From positions 211,815 to 275,814 of the forward strand of contig CAZBAS010000001.1 in NCBI GenBank assembly GCA_964490395.1: a stretch of DNA of 64,000 bases, given 5' to 3'. The notes under the pieces are model-generated. The model was not told where the DNA came from. It saw nothing but the letters and a program-made list of their open reading frames with translations, and made no database searches. Every line of letters begins with the position of its first letter. The first letter of the stretch is position 1. This DNA is from an uncultured Candidatus Saccharibacteria bacterium. Its GTDB lineage: Bacteria > Patescibacteriota > Doudnabacteria > UBA920. The translations under genes were made by a program, and so were the position numbers. Shown here piece by piece: positions 3,293 to 62,826 of this stretch.

Positions 3293-4681
3293 ATGACAAC
3301 ACTCAACAAATACATGTTTCGTGAATATGATGTGCGCGGACATGAAACAGATGATGAACTCAACGTTGACTCGGTCACCCTCATTGCTAAGGCCTATGGT
3401 ACCTTCCTGCAGGGCAGGGGAATAACAAATGCGGTCGTGGGTCACGATAATAGACAGATGTCGGAGGTATTTTACCGTACAGCAATTACTGCGCTACAAA
3501 GCACCGGTATACATGTTATTGGCATAGGTATGTCGCTAACACCGCAAATGTACTGGGCGCAGTATTACTTTAAAACCGAGGGCGGTCTCGCAATTACAGC
3601 AAGTCATAACCCCGTTGGTTGGAATGGCATGAAGATGGCGCTTGGTTATTCTGCCACATTAGACCAAGAACAGATTGCTGGCCTCTACACCATTGCTGAG
3701 TCTGGTCAATTCGCGAGCGGGGAAGGAAGTTTCAGAGAAGAAAATATAATTGAAGCGTGGATGAAGGATTTACTCAGCCGCGTTACATTGCACAGGCCGC
3801 TTAAAATACTTCTCAACACTGCAAATGCTACTTCAAGTTTTTTTTCGCCCGAACTATTTCGTCGGTTTGGGTGCGAAGTTGTGGAGTACAATACAAACCC
3901 AGATCCGAGTTACCCGCACTATCCACCGAACCCTGCTAACATAGACATGATTACTGACACAGGCAAAAAGACTCACGAAGTTGGCGCGGACGTAGGGATA
4001 GGTATAGATGCCGATGGCGACAGGCTTGGTGTAACCGATGAGCAGGGGAGTGTAATTTGGCCAGATAGGTACATGATTTTACTCTCGCGCTTAGTGCTGA
4101 AGGATCATCCTGGTGCGAATATAGTGTTTGACGTAAAGGTTTCTGAAAGTTTGCCAGAGGATATAGCGGCGCATGGGGGAGTGCCAGTTATGTGTACTAC
4201 AGGCAACCCGTACATAAAACGCAAGATAAAAGAAATAGGCGCACCATTTGGAGGAGAGCAGTCCGGGCATATATTTTTTACCGATAATTTTTACGGCTTT
4301 GACGATGGCAACTTTGCGGGGTTGAAATTGCTCGAATATATTTCTAGTCTCTCGGAGCCTTTGTCTAGAATTATGGAGAGTACCCCATACTATATTTCTA
4401 CCCATGCTATGTATGCCATGGCAACCGATGCGCGCAAGTATGAAATAGTGGAAGAAATAACTAAACAGTTTAAGAGCGAAGGATATAGAGTTATAGATAT
4501 AAATGGTGGTCGCGTCTATATGCACACAGGGTGGGGCCTTATTCGTGCTACTTCTAATTTGCCCGCTGTTGAGGTACGTTTTGAAGCGAAGACGCAAGAG
4601 GATCTGGAGAAAATAAAATCCGCATTTAAAGAGAAGCTTGCTCAGTTTCCAGAAGTTTCCTCAGAGTGGGGATCGGCGTAG
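3293..4681 (+). CDS. phosphomannomutase/phosphoglucomutase (alpha-D-phosphohexomutase family)
   Basis: TASHNPVGWNGMKM active-site serine loop, GIGIDADGDR metal loop, GGEQSGHIFF sugar-binding loop. Confidence 0.85.
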   Translation: MTTLNKYMFREYDVRGHETDDELNVDSVTLIAKAYGTFLQGRGITNAVVGHDNRQMSEVFYRTAITALQSTGIHVIGIGMSLTPQMYWAQYYFKTEGGLAITASHNPVGWNGMKMALGYSATLDQEQIAGLYTIAESGQFASGEGSFREENIIEAWMKDLLSRVTLHRPLKILLNTANATSSFFSPELFRRFGCEVVEYNTNPDPSYPHYPPNPANIDMITDTGKKTHEVGADVGIGIDADGDRLGVTDEQGSVIWPDRYMILLSRLVLKDHPGANIVFDVKVSESLPEDIAAHGGVPVMCTTGNPYIKRKIKEIGAPFGGEQSGHIFFTDNFYGFDDGNFAGLKLLEYISSLSEPLSRIMESTPYYISTHAMYAMATDARKYEIVEEITKQFKSEGYRVIDINGGRVYMHTGWGLIRATSNLPAVEVRFEAKTQEDLEKIKSAFKEKLAQFPEVSSEWGSA

Positions 4682-4694
4682 TGTGCGAAGCGCA

Positions 4695-4806
4695 GAATTA
4701 TGAATTAAGAATTATAGAATTAGGAATAACGATTCACACTACCCCTTTCCCTATGGAAAGGGGTAGTTATTTCTTAGTTCATAATTCTATAATTCTTAAT
4801 TCATAC
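4695..4806. repeat. AT-rich palindromic element (GAATTATGAATTAAGAATTATAGAATTAGG ... inverted copy) enclosing a terminator-like hairpin
   Basis: Arms 4695-4731 and 4768-4806 are reverse complements; central hairpin acccctttccctatggaaaggggt; family members at 14108-14210, 14441-14472, 30637-30690, 50921-51030, 51262-51374, 62736-62826. Confidence 0.6.
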
Positions 4807-4822
4807 TTTTTTGCTTGCAAAA

Positions 4823-5963: not shown

Positions 5964-6752
5964 GTGAGGGTTATGAAGTACGCTCGTATAATATACATCG
6001 CGGCATTTGCCTGTTTGTGCGTGGCCAGTATGCCAGCGCGCACGGCGCATGCCGCTATTTCTATCTCAAATGTAACAGTGCGGCCTGTAAGTAATACAAG
6101 CGTTACTATTACCTGGGATAGCAGCAAGGCAGGGGACTCCTGGGTGGGGTATACTGCTGCAGGCTCAACAAACCAGCAGTCTAAAGTGACTGTACTTTCG
6201 GTGCAGGCGCATAGCGTAACGCTCACAGACCTGCAGCCCGGCACTGAGTATACCTACGAAGTAAATACCCAAACCCCCCAAGGTGACATAGGCTTTATAG
6301 CCGGGCTCAAATTTACCACAACGGGGCAAACTGGTACTTTGCCTCTTAGTGCCCCGTGCGGTACTCTGGCAAAGTCTGGGTCAGGTATATTTTTTCTTAC
6401 GGGTAAAGATAAAGTAAAAATTCCGTTTACATCCATGGCGGCATTTACGGGTTTGGGGTATGATCTAAAAAATGTAAAAACCATGGATGTGTCCAGCTAT
6501 AAATCTTCCGGCAGCTATTACCTAAGCAGCGCTACTCAAGAACACCCATGGTGCAGCTGGATGAAGTGGAAAGATAATACCATTTATTATAGCCATCCCA
6601 GTGGCGCCATCCCCGTGCCAAGCTGGGACGTGTTTATAAACAATGGCGGTCGCGCAGACCTTATAGTTCCCATGAATGCTGCGGATGATGCTGTGTGGGC
6701 CAAGAATCCAAACCTACCAGTACTGCAGTTGAGTGACAGCCGAATACTATAA
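5964..6752 (+). CDS. secreted protein, paralog of 5014-5952 (FN3-like domain plus same C-terminal domain, no PT linker)
   Basis: Signal peptide; ISNVTVRPVSNTSVTITWDS FN3-like; C-terminal block GKDKVKIPFTSMAAFTGLGYDLKNV...HPW...YYSHPSGAIPVPS aligns to first paralog. Confidence 0.55.
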   Translation: MRVMKYARIIYIAAFACLCVASMPARTAHAAISISNVTVRPVSNTSVTITWDSSKAGDSWVGYTAAGSTNQQSKVTVLSVQAHSVTLTDLQPGTEYTYEVNTQTPQGDIGFIAGLKFTTTGQTGTLPLSAPCGTLAKSGSGIFFLTGKDKVKIPFTSMAAFTGLGYDLKNVKTMDVSSYKSSGSYYLSSATQEHPWCSWMKWKDNTIYYSHPSGAIPVPSWDVFINNGGRADLIVPMNAADDAVWAKNPNLPVLQLSDSRIL

Positions 6753-6753
6753 C

Positions 6754-6786
6754 CAAAAAAACCGCCACCCGGCGGTTTGTTTATCC
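6754..6786 (+). terminator. intrinsic terminator
   Basis: aaaaaaaccgccacccggcggtttgtttat: GC stem plus T-run after FN3 paralog 2. Confidence 0.6.
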
Positions 6787-6802
6787 CGTTAGGGATAATC
6801 CT

Positions 6803-6840
6803 GTTCCTCTCCCCAGGCCTGGGGAGAGGCTAGGAGAGAG
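6803..6840. repeat. CTCTCCCCAGGCCTGGGGAGAGG hairpin repeat, copy 1 (3' flank of DUF559 gene)
   Basis: Perfect palindrome cctctccccaggcctggggagagg followed by ctaggagagagg; same core at 48759-48781; variant at 7195-7227. Confidence 0.65.
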
Positions 6841-7192
6841 GTCGAAATGCTTGCTGTTTGATTACTTCTAGTACTCCCGCAATGTTGCTATCTACATCAT
6901 TATTCCAGAAGTGTAATACTGCGTATCCATTCTTTTCTAAGTATGTTTGCTTATCTGCATCTTTCTGTTTCTCTATCATCTCGCTATGTTGGCCACCGTC
7001 TAGTTCTATAATTAGCTTTTTCTCGTTGCAGCAGAAGTCAGCTATGTAAGGCCCGATCGGAACTTGGCGTTTAAACTTGAAACCATAGAAACGATTGCCG
7101 CGTAGGTAGTACCATAGTTTGGTCTCCCAGGGTGTTTGAGCAGTTCGTAGCTTTTTAGCATTTTCTAGATATATATGGTGCTTACTGTACAT
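6830..7192 (-). CDS. DUF559 endonuclease domain protein (Vsr-like PD-(D/E)xK fold)
   Basis: QVPIGPYIADFCCNEKKLIIELDGGQH and YAVLHFWNNDV motifs typical of DUF559; ORF extends to 7234 but the N-terminal 14 codons are read through the hairpin repeat, so the Met at 7192 is the likelier start. Confidence 0.65.
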   Translation of the reverse strand: MYSKHHIYLENAKKLRTAQTPWETKLWYYLRGNRFYGFKFKRQVPIGPYIADFCCNEKKLIIELDGGQHSEMIEKQKDADKQTYLEKNGYAVLHFWNNDVDSNIAGVLEVIKQQAFRPLS

Positions 7193-7194
7193 AC

Positions 7195-7227
7195 ACCTCT
7201 CCCAGCCCTCTCCAGGCAGGAGAGGGG
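7195..7227. repeat. hairpin repeat variant, copy 2 (5' flank of DUF559 gene)
   Basis: cctctcccagccctctccaggcaggagagggg: imperfect palindrome related to 6806-6830. Confidence 0.5.
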
Positions 7228-7236
7228 AATACATAA

Positions 7237-7259
7237 GACCGGCCTTTGTGGCCGGTCTT
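7237..7259. terminator. hairpin downstream of trpS (agaccggcctttgtggccggtct)
   Basis: 9 bp GC stem; weak T-run, so may be a processing or terminator stem. Confidence 0.35.
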
Positions 7260-7264
7260 AAAGA

Positions 7265-8275
7265 CTAGAAATATCCTATCTTCATGGCAGTGCGGACTTC
7301 ATGCATAGTTTTCTCGGCTTCGGCACGTGCTTTCTTTGTGCCTTCCGCGAGAATGTGTACGACTTCTTCGGGTTTTGCTGCCCACTCTTCTCTTCGTTGT
7401 CGAATAGGGGTGAGTATGGTTTCGAGTGTTTCAAATAACTTATTTTTTACCGCAACGTCGCCAAGTCCGCCCTTCGTGTATGCGGCTTTAAGTTCAGCAA
7501 CTTCTGTCTTGTCTGCATGGAACATGTCCAAATAACTAAACACTACGTTGCCTTCTACTTTGCCTGGGTCTTCAACACGTACATGTCCAGGATCTGTATA
7601 CGCAGACATTACTTTCTGTTTTACTACCTCTGTTGGGTCACTGAGGAAAATAGCATTGCCTAGTGACTTGCTCATCTTTGCTGTGCCATCAAGTCCTGGT
7701 AAGCGACTCTCTAGAGGATTCTGCGGAATGAGGTGCTCTACCGTTTTAAATACTGGTCCGTAGTACGAATTAAATTTGTGAGCTATTTCATTTGTTTGTT
7801 CTATCATAGGCGCTTGATCTGCACCTACGGGCACTAGGTCTGCTTTACAGAATAATATATCTGCAGCTTGACTCACCGGATAGCAGAGGAATCCTGCTGG
7901 TATATCCCGTTCGTATCCTTTTTGTTGTATTTCGGCTTTTACTGTTGGGTTCCGTTCTAGGCGTGCAACAGTAACTAAATTCAAAAAGAATATAGTGAGC
8001 TCGGCTATTTCCGGTACGAGAGATTGTATAAATATAGTAGTCTTTTCTGGGTCTATGCCAACAGCTAAATAGTCCAGGGCGACTTCAAAAATATTGTCGC
8101 GAACTTTTTGAGGGTTGTCGGCATTATCGGTCAGAGCTTGTACGTCGGCAAGCATTACAAACTGATTGTATTCATCTTGCAGCTTTACCCGGTTGCGGAG
8201 CGAGCCAACATAGTGGCCAAGGTGTAATTTACCGGTAGGTCTGTCCCCGGTGAGAATTCTCTTTTTTTCTTCCAT
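7265..8275 (-). CDS. trpS: tryptophanyl-tRNA synthetase
   Basis: [16 protein letters not shown] (HIGH), KMSKSLGN (KMSKS), class Ic aaRS length. Confidence 0.9.
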
Positions 8276-13576: not shown

Positions 13577-14107
13577 GTGAAGGTAGGGTAGTGGTCGGTT
13601 CTTGTATCTAGTTCTGACTGCTTCGTCAAAAATACATGTTCACGAGTTTCAGCAGACGCAAGAAACCGACGTACCTATTACTTATGGTTCCTACAAATTA
13701 CGAATGATTACAGATATACAAACAGTACTGTAGTAAAGTCTGTATTTCGTTGATGCCTATAAGTAATCGTGTGTATCGTAACGACAGGAAGACTTACCAA
13801 TACAGTATGCGTATATCTGTATGTATCTGTAATCTGTAGGCTCTATTGTTATCGTGCATTACAAACCAAAGGTTTGCTTTTTATGTAGATCTATCTGTGC
13901 GTGGCGTATTCGGCCGCCGCGATAGGTAATGTCCTGTCTCTAAAAAGAGGCCGGGCACAATTAACAAATCAAAAATAAAAAAGACTTTTTTAGAACTGAT
14001 TTGCCAACTGTTAGAAGTTGTTTTGATTTCTCACGAATTCAACGTACAAGCATTATAGCGCACCCCAACTTATTTGTCAAACAAAGATGGCTAAAAATGG
14101 CTTATGT

Positions 14108-14440: not shown

Positions 14441-14472
14441 GAATCAAGAATTATGAATTACGAATCTTGCAG
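14441..14472. repeat. AT-rich repeat unit (tgaatcaagaattatgaattacgaatcttg)
   Basis: Same family as 4695-4806 and 14108-14210; flanks the tRNA-Leu locus. Confidence 0.5.
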
Positions 14473-14579
14473 TCCGGCTCTTGATTAAGCAATTATACCG
14501 GAGCCATAACATCCTGCCAAGTGTTTTAGCCTTTTGATTGCTTGACTCTTGATTCTTACTTCTTGATTCTGCGCTGCGC

Positions 14580-19570: not shown

Positions 19571-21808
19571 CTACAGGCTTTTTTTAATTATTTCTGCTTT
19601 GGCTTTACCAACTAACTTTTCTAATTCTTCTAACTCTACTTCCTTTATTCTTGCTACTGAGCCAAACTTTAGTTTGAGGAGTTTTTTAGTTTTCGGGCCT
19701 ATGCCGGGGATGGTGTCGAGCGCAGATTTGGTCGCTTGTTTACTGCGAAGCTGGCGGTGGAAGGTTATACCAAAGCGGTGGGCTTCATCGCGTAGGCGCT
19801 GGAGTATCTGCAAGGCAAGTTCATCGTGACTAAGAATGATTGGTTCAGGGTTGTTAGGTAAAAATATTTCCTCAATGCGTTTTGCGAGGCCAATCATGGG
19901 AATAGCTGCTAGCTTAGAGCTGTTAGCTTCTAGTTCAGAGCCGTTATTGCTTTCTGCTTTTTCTTTCGCAGCTATCACTTCTGCCTGCGCTTCCAGCGCA
20001 GCGCTAAGCTGTCCTTTGCCACCATCTATAACTATTAAGTCCGGCCGCGGCCAGAGGTTTTGCCCCCCTCCTCTTGAGGAGGGGCTAGGGGAGGTCGTAG
20101 AGCTGTTTACTTTTTTGATCCGTTTACTATTTTTATCATCTGCTGTGACCCCCTCGAGCGCCCCCTCAAGAGGGGGAGGGCTCAGGTGCGCGAGTCTGCG
20201 AGTCAGTGTTTCCCGCATCATGGCAAAATCGTCCGGAGTGTCTTTGCTGCGGATTTTGAACTTACGATATTCTGACTTTGCTGGTTTGCCATCTATAAAC
20301 ACGACCATGCTGCCGACCGGGTTTGTTCCTTGGGTATTGGACATGTCGTAGCATTCAATGCGTCTGGGAAGCTCGGGCAGGCCCAGAAGCTTTTGAAGCT
20401 TTAGTAAGGCTTCGTGTAGTTTGTCTATATCTGTGGCGTCGCTTTCGAGCTGCTTGCGCACGCATTCCTCAGCGTTTAATTGTCCCAGTTTTATGAGTTG
20501 CAATAATTTTCCACGGTGGGGAATACTAATGGGGATACTCTTTCCTTTTCTTTGTGCAAGTAATTCAGTAATAAGTGAAAGTTCGGAAAGTGGGAACTGG
20601 GTGAAAATTTTATCAGGCAGGTCTGTGGTATCAGCGTAATACGTTTCCGAGAACGTTTGAATAATACGAGATTCCGTGTCTTGCTCTCCTCCTCTTGAGG
20701 AGGAGTTGGAGGAGGTCATAGAAACTTTTGATGTATTATTATGCTCTGCTACGACCTCACCTAGCCTCTCCTCAAGAGGAGAGGAACCAGACAAGATCGC
20801 TGGTGCGCCATACACAAAGTTTTCTTTGTCGGTGAGCCTACCGTCCCGTACTTTGAAAAGGTTTATGCAATACAGCCCACTTTGAATACCAAGTGAAATA
20901 AGATCGTAATTTACTTTGGTGGGGAACTGAGCTATTTGCCGCTCGTCTAGCAGCTCCAAAGCACGGAGCTGGTCGCGGAGCCTGGCTGCAAGCTCGAACC
21001 GGGTTTGTTCAGATGCTTCTTCCATGGCGCGCTGGACCTCTTGTTTTACTTCACGAGTCTTGCCATTTAAAAAGAGTTGTATGCGCTGCAAGTTTTTTTG
21101 ATACTCTTCAATGCTTATAGCTCCCACGCATATGCCAGGGCACCGATGTAGATGATAATAGAAACAGGGACGATTGCTAATTTCCGTGTTGGCGCAGTAG
21201 GGGAATATGCGGCGCACAAAATCGAGCGTCTCACGAATTTTGCGAACTGAAGAGTATGGCCCAAAGTACTGGTTATTTTTAGTGGGCGTGTGCAGAAGGG
21301 CATCTTCTGCAGCAGCTGCCCTTCTGGTCCCTGCTGCGGTTACGATTTTGCTCTTGACTTTCGACTTTATTATTTTCCGTTGGTGCTTGCCACTTCCCCA
21401 GGCAGCAGAAGGGTTTAAAAAGACTTGTAGCTCTCTATCTTCTTCAATTTTTCGCGCATAGCCTATTTGAGGGATTTGCGTGCCGTAGTCTATAACTATG
21501 AATGCATAGTTTTTGTCGTCTTTGAGTTTAATGTTGTACTTTGGCGAGTGTTTTTTTATGAGTGTGTTTTCCAGGAACAGCGCCTCTAGCTCGGTACGCG
21601 CAACTATGTAGTCTATGTCTCGTGCATCCTCTATTAAAAACGGCAACTGTGGTCGTTTATCCTGCCCAAAATACTGGCTTACGCGTTTGCGCAAGTCTTT
21701 GGCTTTGCCCACATATAAAACTAACCCAGCTGCATCTTTAAATAGATAGCACCCAGGGCTATGGGGAAAATGAGTAATTTGTTGCTTAAGTTCTGGCATT
21801 TGTGCCAT
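19571..21808 (-). CDS. uvrC: excinuclease ABC subunit C (UvrC) carrying two in-frame repeat-derived insertions
   Basis: GIY-YIG N-terminus (CYLFKDAAGLVLYVGKAKDLRKRVSQY), UvrBC, RNase H-like and C-terminal HhH domains; 745 aa versus ~600 typical. Confidence 0.9.
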   Translation of the reverse strand: MAQMPELKQQITHFPHSPGCYLFKDAAGLVLYVGKAKDLRKRVSQYFGQDKRPQLPFLIEDARDIDYIVARTELEALFLENTLIKKHSPKYNIKLKDDKNYAFIVIDYGTQIPQIGYARKIEEDRELQVFLNPSAAWGSGKHQRKIIKSKVKSKIVTAAGTRRAAAAEDALLHTPTKNNQYFGPYSSVRKIRETLDFVRRIFPYCANTEISNRPCFYYHLHRCPGICVGAISIEEYQKNLQRIQLFLNGKTREVKQEVQRAMEEASEQTRFELAARLRDQLRALELLDERQIAQFPTKVNYDLISLGIQSGLYCINLFKVRDGRLTDKENFVYGAPAILSGSSPLEERLGEVVAEHNNTSKVSMTSSNSSSRGGEQDTESRIIQTFSETYYADTTDLPDKIFTQFPLSELSLITELLAQRKGKSIPISIPHRGKLLQLIKLGQLNAEECVRKQLESDATDIDKLHEALLKLQKLLGLPELPRRIECYDMSNTQGTNPVGSMVVFIDGKPAKSEYRKFKIRSKDTPDDFAMMRETLTRRLAHLSPPPLEGALEGVTADDKNSKRIKKVNSSTTSPSPSSRGGGQNLWPRPDLIVIDGGKGQLSAALEAQAEVIAAKEKAESNNGSELEANSSKLAAIPMIGLAKRIEEIFLPNNPEPIILSHDELALQILQRLRDEAHRFGITFHRQLRSKQATKSALDTIPGIGPKTKKLLKLKFGSVARIKEVELEELEKLVGKAKAEIIKKSL
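20063..20180. repeat. ~115 bp palindromic element inserted in frame in uvrC, copy 1
   Basis: ccccctcctcttgaggaggggctaggggaggtcgtagag ... ctgctgtgaccccctcgagcgccccctcaagagggggaggg; encodes PPPLEGALEGV...SPSPSSRGGGQ. Confidence 0.65.
20684..20786. repeat. ~105 bp palindromic element inserted in frame in uvrC, copy 2
   Basis: ctctcctcctcttgaggaggagttggaggaggtcatagaaac ... ctgctacgacctcacctagcctctcctcaagaggagagg; encodes SSPLEERLGEVV...SSRGGEQ; termini are mutual reverse complements. Confidence 0.65.
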
Positions 21809-27643: not shown

Positions 27644-27661
27644 AGAGGTTACAGGTTAGAG
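27644..27661. repeat. 18 bp inverted repeat, left arm (agaggttacaggttagag)
   Basis: Perfect reverse complement of 28043-28060. Confidence 0.7.
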
Positions 27662-27677
27662 GGTAGAGTGAAAGACT

Positions 27678-28028
27678 TTAATGATTTTTTAATTTACTAA
27701 TCATGGAATACAGCATTCTTTGGATTTCATCTAATGTTTTCTCTGCGTTAGTGCAGTCAATATTAGTGTATCGATTCTTACTAATAATGATCTGGGTTTC
27801 GAGTTCGGCTGCTGAGGCAATCGCAATGGAGAGAAATTGGATATACTCTGGCTTATGGCCTCGTCTGCTGCCTTCGGCGATATTTGAAGGAATTGAAATA
27901 GCGGCGCGCAGCATTTGGCTTACCAAAATATATAACTCATGCTTGGGGAGTTGGTCAGAGATTTTATAAATTTCATCAACTAAATTTATAGATTTCTGCC
28001 ACACTATCAAATCTTTAAATGATTGCAT
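27678..28028 (-). CDS. four-helix-bundle protein (family of 23S rRNA intervening-sequence proteins, TIGR02436-like)
   Basis: 116 aa; FKDLIVWQKSINLVDEIYKISDQLPKHELYILVSQMLRAAISIPSNIAEGSRRGHKPEYIQFLSIAIASAAELETQI is the characteristic pattern. Confidence 0.6.
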   Translation of the reverse strand: MQSFKDLIVWQKSINLVDEIYKISDQLPKHELYILVSQMLRAAISIPSNIAEGSRRGHKPEYIQFLSIAIASAAELETQIIISKNRYTNIDCTNAEKTLDEIQRMLYSMISKLKNH

Positions 28029-28042
28029 AAGTATTTCATTAC

Positions 28043-28060
28043 TCTAACCTGTAACCTCTC
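28043..28060. repeat. 18 bp inverted repeat, right arm (ctctaacctgtaacctct)
   Basis: Perfect reverse complement of 27644-27661. Confidence 0.7.
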
Positions 28061-29481: not shown

Positions 29482-29566
29482 AATTTTTAATTTTTAATTT
29501 CCAATTTTCAAAATAATACAATTGAGAATTCATTAAAAATTATAAAATTAAAAATTGAAAATTATG
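29482..29566. repeat. AT-rich inverted repeat in hrcA-grpE spacer
   Basis: aaatttttaatttttaatttccaattttcaaaat ... aaaaattataaaattaaaaattgaaaatt. Confidence 0.4.
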
Positions 29567-48397: not shown

Positions 48398-48448
48398 TAC
48401 TGTCAGGATTACTTTTAAATTGTAATCCCGATGGTATGCTTTTTTTAT
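48398..48448. terminator. hairpin + T-run (gcatactgtcagg ... ggtatgcttttttt)
   Basis: Follows the small Cys-rich ORF; also abuts the CapA gene stop on the other strand. Confidence 0.4.
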
Positions 48449-49701
48449 TTGGATGCGGATGGACAACAGTTTTCTTTTATATAAAGCGGGAGTTCTTCTA
48501 TGCTTTGGATTGTAGTGATGGGTAGCTGAACGCCGCCTGACGGCTGGAGGTCGGAAATGGTTGCGCTGTTATTAATAGACGAAGTTTTCGGTATTGCGGC
48601 GGTTGGTTTGGTAAGGGTAATTTTAAGGGCAAGGCCTTTTTTAGTTTCCGCGCTCCAGTCTTGGTCAAAGATAAAATTTCCTAGAGAATAATAGATGGGT
48701 TTGCAATTGGGATTTCGGTTTATCTCTTGTGGTGTAGATTCGTTCGACCTCTCTCCATCTCTCCCCAGGCCTGGGGAGAGGGCCGGAGCCGAGCCGTTAT
48801 ACTCGGAAATCGTACTAGTTCTTGGGCAATATATTTCTTTATTTTGGACCCAGTGCGGGTGAGCGCCTATGACTATATCTGCACCAGCGTCTATGGCTGC
48901 ATGGGCAAAGTCTATTTGATCTTGGTTTGCTTTGGGGGTGTATTCTGTTCCGGCGTGCATAGTCACGACTAGGAAGTCGATTTTAGATTTCAGATTGTAG
49001 ATTGCAGATTTAAGACGCTCGACATCTTCAATTCGAGCTACATAACTATTTATAGTTTTACCGCCATCGTTTACAGAAGAATACGAAGCACCAATGAATC
49101 CTATTTTAATGCCATTCTTTTCTATAATGGCCGGAGTCCATGCTTCGTCGAGTGTTTTGCCAGTACCCATGTGCAGTAGTCCATTATCATTGAGCACTTT
49201 TTCAGTAGTAGTAATGCCGTCTAGTCCTTGGTCAAACGCATGATTGTTTGCAAGGTTCAGTACAGCAAAATTGTATTCTTTCAGGCCAGCGACATTTGTT
49301 TTGGGCGCGTTAAACACAAGTGTGTTTTTTGCAGTAAACGCATCGGTTTTTGAGAAGGGCGACTCAAGATTGGCAAAGTTAAAGTCAGAAGACTTGAGCA
49401 AGCCCACTATATTATGGAAAGGGTACAGAGGGTCTTTTTTTGCTTGTATGGTTGCGGCAACGCTTCGAGAAAGAGAGATATCGCCAAATGCTAAAAAGGT
49501 TACGGTGCTTGGTTGTTGCTGCGTAAGATTGGTTGCTGCTGCGTTCTGGCCTTGCGTATAAAAATCTTGAAATGACTTATCTTGGTTAGCAGCAGAATTG
49601 TGGGTAAGCGGTGAGCCGTGGTTAAGTTGAAAAACACCAAGTATAGTGGCGGCTATGACGACTATTAGTATGGGAGTGAAGACAAGGACTTTACGAGTCA
49701 T
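48445..49701 (-). CDS. CapA family protein (poly-gamma-glutamate/capsule biosynthesis metallophosphatase-like), N-terminal membrane anchor
   Basis: DFNFANLESPF, LANNHAFDQG, VTMHAGTEY, GAHPHWVQ, YSLGNFIFDQ; ORF opens at 49755, likely start MTRKVLVF. Confidence 0.8.
   Translation of the reverse strand: MTRKVLVFTPILIVVIAATILGVFQLNHGSPLTHNSAANQDKSFQDFYTQGQNAAATNLTQQQPSTVTFLAFGDISLSRSVAATIQAKKDPLYPFHNIVGLLKSSDFNFANLESPFSKTDAFTAKNTLVFNAPKTNVAGLKEYNFAVLNLANNHAFDQGLDGITTTEKVLNDNGLLHMGTGKTLDEAWTPAIIEKNGIKIGFIGASYSSVNDGGKTINSYVARIEDVERLKSAIYNLKSKIDFLVVTMHAGTEYTPKANQDQIDFAHAAIDAGADIVIGAHPHWVQNKEIYCPRTSTISEYNGSAPALSPGLGRDGERSNESTPQEINRNPNCKPIYYSLGNFIFDQDWSAETKKGLALKITLTKPTAAIPKTSSINNSATISDLQPSGGVQLPITTIQSIEELPLYIKENCCPSASK
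48748..48790. repeat. CTCTCCCCAGGCCTGGGGAGAGG hairpin repeat, copy 3 (in frame inside CapA gene)
   Basis: gacctctctccatctctccccaggcctggggagagggccggagc encoding ...APALSPGLGRDGERS... Confidence 0.65.
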
Positions 49702-49751
49702 GGCTTGGTAAGAAATGTCTAATAAAAAACAAATAGCCAATTCTGGTCCGG

Positions 49752-49822
49752 GCATTAGTAATTACCCGCCCAAGGCGGGTCCGCCTTGGGCGGAGATATT
49801 GGAAATTAGACATTAGGAATTG
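49752..49822. repeat. GC-hairpin composite repeat, copy 3 (capA-dprA spacer)
   Basis: gcattagtaattaCCCGCCCAAGGCGGGTCCGCCTTGGGCGGAGatattggaaattagacattaggaattg. Confidence 0.7.
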
Positions 49823-50920: not shown

Positions 50921-51030
50921 GAGTGAATAACGAATCTAGAATTATGAATTAAGAATAATACTTGTTAAGGCTGCAGGCCTTAAAAAGCCAATTTTCATAA
51001 TTCTTTATTCATAATTCTATATTCTTGCTA
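50921..51030. repeat. AT-rich inverted-repeat element (gaatctagaattatgaattaagaataatac ... ttcataattctttattcataattctatattcttg)
   Basis: Same family as 4695-4806; central ggctgcaggcc palindrome. Confidence 0.55.
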
Positions 51031-51261: not shown

Positions 51262-51374
51262 CCAATTCCTAATTTCCAATTTCTAAAGACCAGATATGCG
51301 CTGCGGGTGCAGCGCTGTAATAATACTGAATTGCTATTTGCATTAGACATTAGAAATTAGACATTAGAAATTTT
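51262..51374. repeat. AT-rich tandem/inverted units (ccaattcctaatttccaatttctaaag; cattagacattagaaattagacattagaaatt)
   Basis: CATTAGAAATTAG motif family shared with 49796-49822 and 62736-62826. Confidence 0.5.
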
Positions 51375-58518: not shown

Positions 58519-58761
58519 GTGAGTACTTTGGTAGAAGTTAAACGTAAAGATAACGAAACATTTGAAAGTTTGCTCAGGCGTTTCAACCGTAAAATTCAAC
58601 AAAGCGGTATTTTAGTGCGTGCTCGAAAAACTCGTTTTTTTGAACCAGGTAAGAGCCGCAATTTATTGCGCGTCGCAGCACGACGCCGCTCTGAACTTCG
58701 CGAACTCCGTGAAGAACTAAAGAAAATGGGTAAGCCCGTAAAACGTCCGGGTAGACGCTAA
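58519..58761 (+). CDS. rpsU: 30S ribosomal protein S21
   Basis: VEVKRKDNETFESLLRRFNRKIQQSGILVRARKTRFFEPGKS...RRRSELR; GTG start at 58519 after AGAGAGAG; the long upstream ORF extension is non-coding. Confidence 0.75.
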   Translation: MSTLVEVKRKDNETFESLLRRFNRKIQQSGILVRARKTRFFEPGKSRNLLRVAARRRSELRELREELKKMGKPVKRPGRR

Positions 58762-58766
58762 ACTCT

Positions 58767-58845
58767 TAGTTGAAAGTTTATAAGGTTCATAAAGTTTACA
58801 AAGTCTGACTTTAAGAACTTTTTACTTTATGAACTTTATAAGCTT
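58767..58845. repeat. AGTTTATAAAG palindromic intergenic module, copy 3 (ends 6 nt before GatB/YqeY start)
   Basis: agttgaaagtttataaggttcataaagtttacaaagtctgactttaagaactttttactttatgaactttataagc; ~85% identical to copy 2. Confidence 0.7.
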
Positions 58846-58851
58846 ATATAC

Positions 58852-59289
58852 ATGACTTTAACTGAATTAGAACAAGCCTCTATTGTTGCTATGAAGGCGC
58901 GCGACAGCGTCACTTCTCGAACGTTGCGCATGCTTTTGGCTCGGCTAAAAAATGAACGCATATCTGCGGGCCACGAACTTGAAACCGGAGAAATAGAGCA
59001 CATTATACAGTCCGAATATAAACGCCGAAAAGAAGCAGCGGCGGAATTTGAAAAAGGCAATCGCCAAGAACTTGCTCAAACAGAACTAGAAGAGGCCGAT
59101 GTCCTTGCTCGCTTCTTGCCAGCTCAGGTGAGTGCAGCAGATATTGCTACAGTGGTAGATGAACTTGTAAGCACGCACGGATGGACTTCGAAAGACTTCG
59201 GAGTAGCAATGAAGTCTTTAAAAGATCGTTTTGGAGCTTCTGCAGACGGAAGTGTTCTTGCTCAAGTACTTAAAGAAAAACTAAATTAG
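58852..59289 (+). CDS. GatB/YqeY domain protein
   Basis: MTLTELEQASIVAMKARDSVTSRTLRMLLARLKNE ... characteristic YqeY helices. Confidence 0.8.
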   Translation: MTLTELEQASIVAMKARDSVTSRTLRMLLARLKNERISAGHELETGEIEHIIQSEYKRRKEAAAEFEKGNRQELAQTELEEADVLARFLPAQVSAADIATVVDELVSTHGWTSKDFGVAMKSLKDRFGASADGSVLAQVLKEKLN

Positions 59290-59365
59290 TTTATAAAGTC
59301 CATCTAGTTATAAAGTGTATAAAGTCGTGTAACTTTAAAAACTTTATGAACCTTATAAACTTTTA
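59290..59365. repeat. AGTTTATAAAG palindromic intergenic module, copy 4 (ends 7 nt before ftsA start)
   Basis: agtttataaagtccatctagttataaagtgtataaagtcgtgtaactttaaaaactttatgaaccttataaactt. Confidence 0.6.
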
Positions 59366-62669: not shown

Positions 62670-62735
62670 CACTTCTGTACCGCAGAATATGTTTACTAGT
62701 TTTCATTAATAATGTATTTACTTAGTAATTAATTA

Positions 62736-62826
62736 CCAATTCCTAATGCCTAATTTCTAATGAAATGCCCAAACGTGGCCCTATTGGACCTTTCATTAGA
62801 AATTAGTAATTGGATATTGGAAATTC
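62736..62826. repeat. AT-rich inverted-repeat element in the 5' region of the RNR gene
   Basis: ccaattcctaatgcctaatttctaatgaaatg ... ctttcattagaaattagtaattggatattggaaattcc. Confidence 0.55.

Follow-up and report, generated by a model that had tools for sequence, protein, structure and literature searches.

The uvrC gene on the stretch of DNA analysed here, 64 000 nucleotides of contig CAZBAS010000001.1 from an uncultured Candidatus Saccharibacteria bacterium (hereafter the window), raises the question of how two palindromic segments of a little over 100 nt came to lie in frame within a single repair gene, and by what means such segments might spread. The gene (19571–21808, minus strand) was recognized from the list of open reading frames (ORFs), from Pfam and from 7560 homologues; it encodes a protein of 745 amino acids with GIY-YIG, UVR, two RNase H-like and HhH domains (PF01541, PF02151, PF22920, PF08459 and PF14520). 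The explanation that we consider probable is that the two segments, elements A and B, are independent insertions of a mobile palindrome with hairpin ends, for which a nuclease of the DUF559 family is the likely partner enzyme.

Element A, the 'long' variant (~117–119 nt, 39 codons), occupies 20063–20181 on the minus strand and corresponds to site A of UvrC (residues ~545–583), within the C-terminal RNase H endonuclease domain. Element B, the 'short' variant (~103–104 nt), occupies 20684–20787, also on the minus strand, and corresponds to site B (residues ~341–373). Both segments were found where a preliminary description of this DNA had placed them, and both peptides quoted there are present in the 745-residue ORF. 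A repeat search of the window gave A and B as same-orientation direct repeats with blocks of 45–46 nt that are 74–82% identical, and each of them as an inverted repeat with arms of 35–45 nt that are 76–80% complementary. A profile built from A and B with nhmmer matched only these two segments in the window (forward E = 1e-35 and 3e-29); because it also matched them in the reverse orientation (E = 3e-14 and 5e-13), the segments are palindromic. The description of A and B as copies of one element in the same orientation, with termini that are reverse complements of each other, was therefore borne out. Weak inverted symmetry runs ~6 nt past the ends that had been assigned to the segments, and the spacer between the terminal hairpin and GGAGGTC, which had been given as three nucleotides, is in fact 6–7 nt long.

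The core motif CCTCTTGAGGAGG occurs six times in the window when up to two mismatches are allowed, all within A and B (expected number 1.0; none of 100 shuffles reached six). Folded as single-stranded DNA, A and B gave z scores of −3.3 and −3.8. A search of the whole window against Rfam at the gathering thresholds returned three tRNAs only and no match over A or B. An identical 745-residue UvrC is recorded in an independent Logan assembly, so that the segments are not an assembly artefact. A and B are confirmed as in-frame palindromic insertions that are real in the sequence.

For the comparison with other genomes, UvrC relatives were given labels of the P0004 type and fetched DNA loci labels of the L009 type (the uvrC gene of P0004 is L009 and that of P0002 is L093). 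The relatives come from Doudnabacteria-like bacteria of the candidate phyla radiation (CPR) and are 590–808 residues in length. In a codon alignment that includes DNA from P0002, P0003 and P0004, the nearest relatives available, site B holds a linker of 13–18 residues in those three sequences versus the element peptide of ~34 residues in the window. At site A the window and P0004 (L009) are inserted at the identical codon, with 39 codons each and homologous centres, and P0002 and P0003 have unrelated linkers of 22–29 residues; the folding energies at this site are −63 and −66 kcal/mol for the window and P0004 versus −23 and −25 kcal/mol for P0002 and P0003. In a neighbour-joining tree calculated from 598 well-occupied columns, P0002 and P0003 fall together with the window (masked UvrC identities to the window of 91 and 89%, respectively). 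These closest relatives lack both segments and have short unrelated linkers instead, in keeping with the preliminary view of the segments as extra sequence.

A and B are insertions into variable linkers. Because P0002 and P0003, which group with the window, are without B, this element is a recent gain in the lineage of the window. The other carriers of A are P0004, whose sister P0007 is without it, and P0014, which branches more deeply; A is thus found at one codon in three separate lineages and is absent from the nearest relatives. This patchy distribution in the tree implies either repeated gain at one codon or several losses.

The location of the inserts in the protein was assessed from an AlphaFold2 model of UvrC with a mean predicted local distance difference test score (pLDDT) of 79.9. 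Values of pLDDT below 50 were obtained for residues 337–372 (site B), which lie between the strand 324–333 and the helix 373–393, and for residues 552–557 and 563–582 (site A), which lie between the helix 527–540 and the strand 591–595. Given this low pLDDT between confident secondary-structure elements, both inserts are predicted to be disordered loops, as would be expected of the surface-loop position for which a check by modelling had been proposed. The intact gene suggests that the inserted peptides are tolerated. The whole of the excess length of UvrC had initially been assigned to the two segments. In an alignment of 120 sequences the extra residues of the window protein fall at four variable sites; A and B account for ~73 of the ~140 extra residues, and the remainder lies at residues 129–175 and 613–634.

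One genome per GTDB species was scanned with a degenerate pattern fitting all four termini of A and B, which gave 12 loci. Seven of these are CPR genomes with full-length elements. Copies are present in frame within the long ORFs of uvrC (L009), mnmA (L012), queA (L003) and a PEP-utilising enzyme (L007) and outside long ORFs in L008 and L010; in L005 two termini lie ~400 bp apart. Full-length copies thus occur in related CPR genomes both in frame in genes and in intergenic DNA, in line with the mobile character first ascribed to the element. Four copies, including the L005 unit with its DUF559 gene, come from one metagenome-assembled genome (MAG; CAZKVS01). The genome of P0003 (CAZYMS01) has an element in queA and none in uvrC. 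All in-gene copies are read in one element frame (SSP.EE.LGEV ... TS(S/P).(S/P)SSRGG), and the host frame is free of stops in every one of them; L008, which is intergenic, is interrupted by stops in each of the six frames.

The copies fall into two groups. The long variant comprises A and the L009 copy (80% identical, including the centre) and, more loosely, L008; the short variant comprises B and the copies in mnmA (L012; 85% identical) and queA (L003; 82%). A and B are 61% identical to each other. B resembles the copies in mnmA and queA more than it resembles A; the two are therefore different variants of one family that were separately acquired, which agrees with the independence originally claimed for the two insertions. 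Derivation of B from A by duplication within uvrC was ruled out by the identity matrix (61% versus 82–85%).

Among the non-CPR matches, L001, L002, L004 and L006 have the appearance of chance hits in coding DNA. A compact single-hairpin form, GACCTCCCCTAA-CCCCTCTTGAGGAGGGG-TTAGGGGAGGTC, was observed at 6684–6740 of L011, which belongs to a MAG labelled Prevotella; the motif in this non-CPR-labelled genome could reflect horizontal spread or a binning error. No DUF559 gene adjoins any of the five non-CPR loci within the fetched 8 kb. A profile of seven element peptides, a short query of low complexity, gave 49 candidates from a database of 5.8 billion proteins with a best E value of 1.5 and was thus uninformative about the range of host proteins.

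The unit that is conserved among the copies is a terminal motif in which a C-rich stem and a G-rich stem are joined by a short loop and followed by a spacer of ~4 nt (often CTAG or TTAG), the G-rich stem again and then GTC. It was located by a motif detector at each end of both elements. At the plus-strand left end of A (20065–20096, plus strand) it reads CCCCTCC-TCTTGA-GGAGGGG-CTAG-GGGAGGTC; the second terminal motif of A (20149–20176, minus strand), found also from helix statistics, reads CCCCCTC-TT-GAGGGGG-CGCTC-GAGGGGGTC. At the plus-strand left end of B (20686–20714, plus strand) the motif is CTCCTCCTC-TT-GAGGAGGAG-TT-GGAGGAGGTC, and the second terminal motif of B (20755–20784, minus strand) is CCTCTCCTC-TT-GAGGAGAGG-CTAG-GTGAGGTC.

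When eight copies are aligned, pairing in the two terminal hairpins amounts to 98.4 and 100%, and compensatory CG<->UA changes occur at three positions in one and one position in the other. The pairing of the left arm with the right arm is 81% in the same alignment, with a covariation below that of every shuffle. The hairpins are thus kept by compensatory changes in the DNA while the encoded peptide diverges, and the long palindrome was ruled out as the selected structure by its lower arm pairing. The selected feature is the hairpin motif at each end and not the whole palindrome, which results because the two ends are inverted copies of one hairpin motif. No target-site duplication was found in the flanks of the eight copies and of three DUF559 units, where only weakly extended inverted symmetry is present. 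The similarity of the spacer CTAGG to the substrate CTWGG of Escherichia coli Vsr was not relied on, since the copies vary at this position (GCTAGG, GTTAGG, GATGG and GCTCG).

The link to an enzyme, which the preliminary description did not contain, comes from L005. The two termini of this locus enclose an ORF of 122 residues that occupies precisely the space between them, the stop codon lying within the right terminus. The product is a DUF559 protein (Pfam E = 2.6e-32) and matches PDB entry 3HRL (E = 4e-18). The left terminus is identical at 32 of 32 positions to one end of the uvrC element of that MAG and at 31 of 32 nt to the end of element A of the window. Among the ORFs between termini, DUF559, a PD-(D/E)XK nuclease, is alone, and no recognised transposase was found there. 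Upstream of this unit in L005 is an ORF of 650 residues, which we take from its sequence to be an alanyl-tRNA synthetase gene. Its 3' end is duplicated by a 121-nt direct repeat (6761–6881 and 7242–7362; 83% identical), the copies of which are 481 nt apart and enclose a 100-residue ORF without a Pfam match; this looks to be an insertion in its own right, one that carried with it a replacement for the end of the gene.

The window contains a DUF559 unit of its own (6803–7229, minus strand) with inverted motifs at 6806–6843 (plus strand) and 7195–7226 (minus strand). The gene (6830–7234, minus strand) encodes a Vsr-like PD-(D/E)XK protein of 134 residues (Pfam E = 7e-38). Two public lengths of this ORF were observed, 134 and 120 residues, the longer of which starts inside the right-hand terminal motif (MYSPLLPGEGWER...), an example of how such termini give rise to spurious N-terminal extensions of called genes. 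The unit lies between the convergent trpS gene and a gene with an fn3 domain; it is intergenic and not in an intron or intein, and occupied, empty and differently occupied alleles of the spacer are present. In L099 and L100, in which tryptophanyl-tRNA synthetase (TrpRS) is 84% identical, the spacer is 61 nt long with a single terminator and no palindrome. In L097 and L098 (TrpRS 97% identical) the homology to the window reaches both stop codons, and the spacer of ~520 nt is taken up by another cassette, which consists of a 23S_rRNA_IVP-family gene and inverted repeats of 38 nt that belong to it. Because the trpS–fn3 spacer is empty or differently occupied in relatives, the window DUF559 unit is strain-level accessory DNA.

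The IVP cassette of L097, with its purine-rich 38-nt repeats, occupies 3522–4031, the exact spacer of the window DUF559 unit. The window has a 23S_rRNA_IVP-family gene at another position (27678–28043, 121 residues, Pfam E = 1e-34; cassette 27644–28059), which lies between the two halves of a perfect inverted repeat of 18 nt (AGAGGTTACAGGTTAGAG). The IVP gene with its inverted repeats is a second type of 'small gene plus inverted repeats' cassette.

A third in-frame insertion in the window, of 40 residues (312–351; 48703–48822, minus strand), lies in a PGA_cap/CapA-like gene (48445–49755). It contains a single hairpin motif (48750–48791), which agrees with the left terminus of the window DUF559 unit at every position of its 23-nt hairpin and of its 11-nt tail. 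The structure in PDB entry 8GQ9 is contiguous (residues 305/306) at the junction of this insert.

The association of the motif with DUF559 was measured on a sample of 80 metagenomic loci, the DUF559 proteins of which are related to that of L005 and 43–69% identical to it. Flanking inverted repeats with a score of at least 18 were present at 25 of 76 DUF559 loci and in none of 69 displaced windows or 76 shuffles. With the motif detector, for which the background expectation is 0.033 per oriented window, the motif was found on both sides of the gene at 43 of 75 loci, on one side at 29 and on neither at three. The sequence of the motif differs by lineage and its design is constant; the identity of the DUF559 proteins and the similarity of their motifs are correlated (Mantel rho = 0.40; none of 999 permutations as high). 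The gene is intact at 79 of the 80 loci, and D58, E69, D71 and H75 are 98–100% conserved at a median pairwise identity of 47%. The loci span 34–66% GC, and gene-less palindromes of 70–112 nt with the same design adjoin the DUF559 genes in many of them. The same bracketing was seen in annotated records of cultured bacteria belonging to four phyla, among them the cyanobacterium Pseudanabaena, Deinococcus proteolyticus and the alphaproteobacteria Sphingomonas and Azospirillum, and it is weak in Picosynechococcus PCC 7002.

From these results we propose that A and B represent a short non-coding, hairpin-terminated palindromic mobile element of Doudnabacteria-like CPR genomes, each end of which is one recognition-type motif in inverted orientation. 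Copies land in many places, and those surviving within genes are the ones that add a whole number of codons, in phase with the single stop-free frame of the element, in a permissive surface linker; they would then be translated as disordered loops rich in Pro, Ser, Gly and Glu. That the elements are dispersed, variable in presence, independently acquired and conserved as DNA at their terminal hairpins is shown or has strong support, as is the case for their tolerance within genes in one open frame and in disordered loops only.

The further steps concern the enzyme. Because the same termini bracket DUF559 genes, the ~110-bp elements may be gene-less counterparts of the ~450-bp DUF559 unit, by analogy with a MITE (a miniature transposable element with inverted repeats) and its parent or with a repetitive extragenic palindrome (REP) and the REPtron. 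The DUF559 nuclease would recognise the terminal hairpins and make breaks, and host recombination or repair would copy or move the element; the nuclease could act either in trans as the partner of gene-less derivatives or as a homing nuclease. We infer that DUF559, as the protein most likely to recognise the hairpins, is the mobilising nuclease. Recombination or homing would account better than cut-and-paste transposition for the missing target-site duplication and for the presence of A at one codon in three lineages. A wider proposal, which we advance tentatively and rate at somewhat less than an even chance, is that DUF559 could be the enzyme partner of a pan-bacterial superfamily of hairpin-terminated palindromes, a PD-(D/E)XK counterpart of the REP-associated tyrosine transposase (RAYT) and its REPs, with gene-less derivatives that spread in a homing-like manner and remodel proteins when inserted in frame into surface loops, the same loops of UvrC in CPR bacteria being entered repeatedly.

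Several points weigh against the proposed role of DUF559 or limit its force. The termini of the window DUF559 unit belong to a sister subfamily and are unlike those of the uvrC elements, and no DUF559 gene with termini matching the uvrC elements is present within the 64-kb window. The part given to the nuclease is argued from association only, and a lone nuclease domain of 110–130 residues cannot perform strand transfer. The pattern was already known when the motif detector was drawn up, a source of bias against which the displaced-window controls guard. The flanking motif is absent at the E. coli DUF559 gene in the annotated record. The CPR sequences all come from metagenome assemblies, and translation through the inserts is deduced from the open frames. 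A DUF559 protein of Caulobacter acts as a Vsr-like repair nuclease (PMC12907096), and inverted repeats around DUF559 genes have been scored as programmed-inversion sites (PMC9881135).

The exact fit of the DUF559 gene between two termini and the frequent gene-less palindromes beside DUF559 genes could also be read in another way, in which the palindromes owe their spread to something else and DUF559, as a homing endonuclease gene that stands on its own, has a product that cuts empty palindromes at their centre, where the gene is then copied in; the uvrC elements would then be unoccupied sites and not deletion derivatives. DUF559 is grouped with Vsr and with the homing endonuclease I-Bth0305I in one Vsr-like clade (PMC3424549), and the recurrence of element A at the same codon in separate lineages would also be expected of homing. 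The empty trpS–fn3 site of L099 and L100 has no palindrome, however, although this is a weak objection, as the comparison is made at 84% TrpRS identity, and the spread of the palindromes themselves is left unexplained. We regard this arrangement as unlikely, with a modest chance of being correct.

If the elements were ordinary REP-type repeats moved by an HUH tyrosine transposase (RAYT) encoded elsewhere, DUF559 would be found near them only because it sits at pile-ups of repeats or is a preferred target. REPs are known in frame in genes, notably in repair genes, among them those for the excinuclease ABC proteins, and in some cases as two copies per gene (PMC3733652). GTAG occurs beside the central stem in some copies of the present element, and a target-site duplication was not found, as with IS200/IS605-like mechanisms. 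This GTAG does not lie at the hairpin's outer 5' end, however, and varies between copies (ATAG and ACAG). An incidental position of DUF559 also agrees poorly with the presence of the motif beside the gene, on one side or both, at 72 of 75 loci (background 0.03 per window), with the co-divergence of protein and motif and with the gene filling the inter-terminus space exactly, with its stop codon inside a terminus. No RAYT turned up in those window ORFs that were scanned, which are not all of the ORFs in the window. The probability left for a RAYT-driven family is small.

DUF559 products are enriched among the predicted targets of programmed inversion (odds ratio 14.3; PMC9881135), and the inverted repeats could accordingly be inversion sites, or else RNA or terminator control elements of a host Vsr-like nuclease, the in-gene copies being incidental by-products. 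The Vsr-like activity of the Caulobacter protein (PMC12907096) is in accord with such a role, and the hairpins would form in RNA as well as in DNA. Near-identical termini dispersed over unrelated genes and intergenic DNA of the same genome are not explained in this way, nor is the strain-level presence and absence of the whole DUF559 unit, and we consider such a reading improbable.

The idea that nothing has moved, the segments being ancient lineage-specific linker expansions or an internal duplication of uvrC that is palindromic by chance, draws on the four variable linkers in UvrC of this clade and on the non-palindromic expansions at sites C and D, but can hardly be maintained when the nearest relatives are without both segments, B is more like the mnmA and queA copies of other genomes than like A, and the hairpins are kept by compensatory DNA changes as the peptide diverges.

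The two other extra segments of UvrC are of a different kind from A and B. Segment C (residues 129–175; 21284–21424, minus strand) is a clade-wide segment of ~45 residues, and segment D (residues 613–634; 19907–19972, minus strand) is a variable linker. Neither could be identified as a degraded palindrome: the folding of segment C is not significant (z = −1.5), and that of segment D gives no indication of one (z = +0.7). Segment C has a conserved NPSA(S/A)WGSGK stretch and basic repeats, is predicted to be disordered (pLDDT below 50 at residues 133–165) and is spanned by a weak inverted repeat of 12–15 nt. It may be a much older, decayed insertion.

Insertions related in design were found in the UvrC genes of other relatives. 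In the gene of P0025, site B is occupied by a palindrome of ~105 nt from a further subfamily that shares the design, and site C by a motif pair; the gene of P0010 has two hairpin motifs at site B. Side by side with these, peptides resembling translated repeats were noted in the UvrC proteins of relatives. The window contains AT-rich intergenic palindromes of the GAATTATGAATTAAGAATTA type and the AATTTCCAATTTCTAA type (4688–4816, 13690–13840, 14441–14569, 29482–29563, 50925–51024, 51264–51372, 58759–58860, 59288–59361 and 62731–62825), the translations of which (ELRI.. and QFPISNEN) match peptides at UvrC sites A and D of related genomes. Peptides such as QFPISNEN and QVT...SNL, present in relatives at these two sites, resemble translated AT-rich palindromes and the IVP-type repeat. 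The AT-rich palindromes may be a further repeat family that also enters protein loops. The site-A insert of the P0002 uvrC gene (L093), ...CAGGTTACAG...CTCTAACCTCAAACCTGCAACCTCTAACC..., resembles the inverted repeat of the window IVP gene (27644–27661), which suggests that IVP-type repeats too may become in-frame inserts at the site-A loop of UvrC. Taken together, the inserts of P0025 and P0010 and the translated-repeat peptides in relatives indicate that several repeat families enter these loops of UvrC time and again.

Selfish palindromes that lie in frame are known from textbooks as an oddity of Rickettsia, and in-gene REPs have been noted in a few phyla. The present observations place such DNA in the CPR (Patescibacteria), where unexplained variation in protein length is common, and offer a mechanism for part of this variation in the form of at least one, and probably three, repeat families that enter the same permissive loops. 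DUF559 is a widespread small nuclease domain that has, to our knowledge, no assigned function in most genomes; the link between DUF559 and the motif leads to a testable hypothesis for the function of the family and for the movement of the palindromes. In the literature searched, hairpin repeats bracketing DUF559 were not described as a dispersed family and in-frame palindromes were not described in CPR bacteria; the nearest trace of repeats flanking DUF559 is a table entry (PMC9881135). For annotation, a practical consequence is that many DUF559 ORFs and their neighbours are called with spurious Pro/Gly/Glu-rich extensions, which are translated repeat termini.

Among known systems, the Rickettsia palindromic elements (RPEs) come first to mind. 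In the work of Ogata et al. from 2000 and 2002, RPE-1 and its relatives are said to be palindromes of 100–150 bp in coding and non-coding DNA, which reportedly lie in frame in essential genes, are read through, are placed at the protein surface and have no obvious target-site duplication. The element described here is likewise a palindrome of ~100–150 bp that occurs in frame in genes (uvrC three times, mnmA, queA and the gene for a PEP-utilising enzyme) and in non-coding DNA, its peptide falls in predicted surface loops and its host is a bacterium with a reduced genome. It differs in that the host belongs to the CPR/Patescibacteria, in that its sequence appears to be unrelated, is GC-rich and has a defined terminal hairpin motif, and in that its termini also bracket a DUF559 nuclease gene; we know of no associated or candidate enzyme for the RPEs.

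With the REP/REPtron system the element shares a short GC-rich hairpin unit, dimers of which form larger palindromes, and a small enzyme gene bracketed by inverted copies. REPs are concentrated in replication and repair genes, including those for excinuclease ABC proteins, and the occurrence of copies within repair genes, sometimes two in one gene, and the lack of a target-site duplication are features in common (PMC3733652, in which the RPEs are mentioned as well). The bracketed gene in the present case encodes a Vsr-like PD-(D/E)XK nuclease and not an HUH/Y1 transposase; there is no terminal GTAG/CGTC tag, as GTAG, ATAG or ACAG is found only at the inner end of the central stem, where it is variable; and the motif repeats its G-rich half-stem after the spacer. 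As in MITEs, the terminal inverted repeats are common to a longer gene-carrying unit (L005; the window DUF559 unit with the capA insert), but no target-site duplication is present and the putative parent encodes a nuclease of ~120 residues and no recognised transposase.

With Vsr and I-Bth0305I, finally, the DUF559 proteins (Pfam DUF559 matches with E = 1e-32 to 1e-38) share membership of one nuclease clade (PMC3424549) and, as a Vsr-like PD-(D/E)XK nuclease, conserved catalytic residues; the recurrence at one codon and the strain-level presence and absence form a homing-like pattern. The DUF559 unit is not in an intron or intein, however, and is bracketed by hairpins, and gene-less copies of the element occur at many unrelated sites. 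The two in-frame insertions in uvrC had been taken as the defining signature of RPE-type DNA; the behaviour is indeed that of an RPE, and the likeness is one of behaviour only; the element is not a member of the REP family and probably not of the RPE families either.

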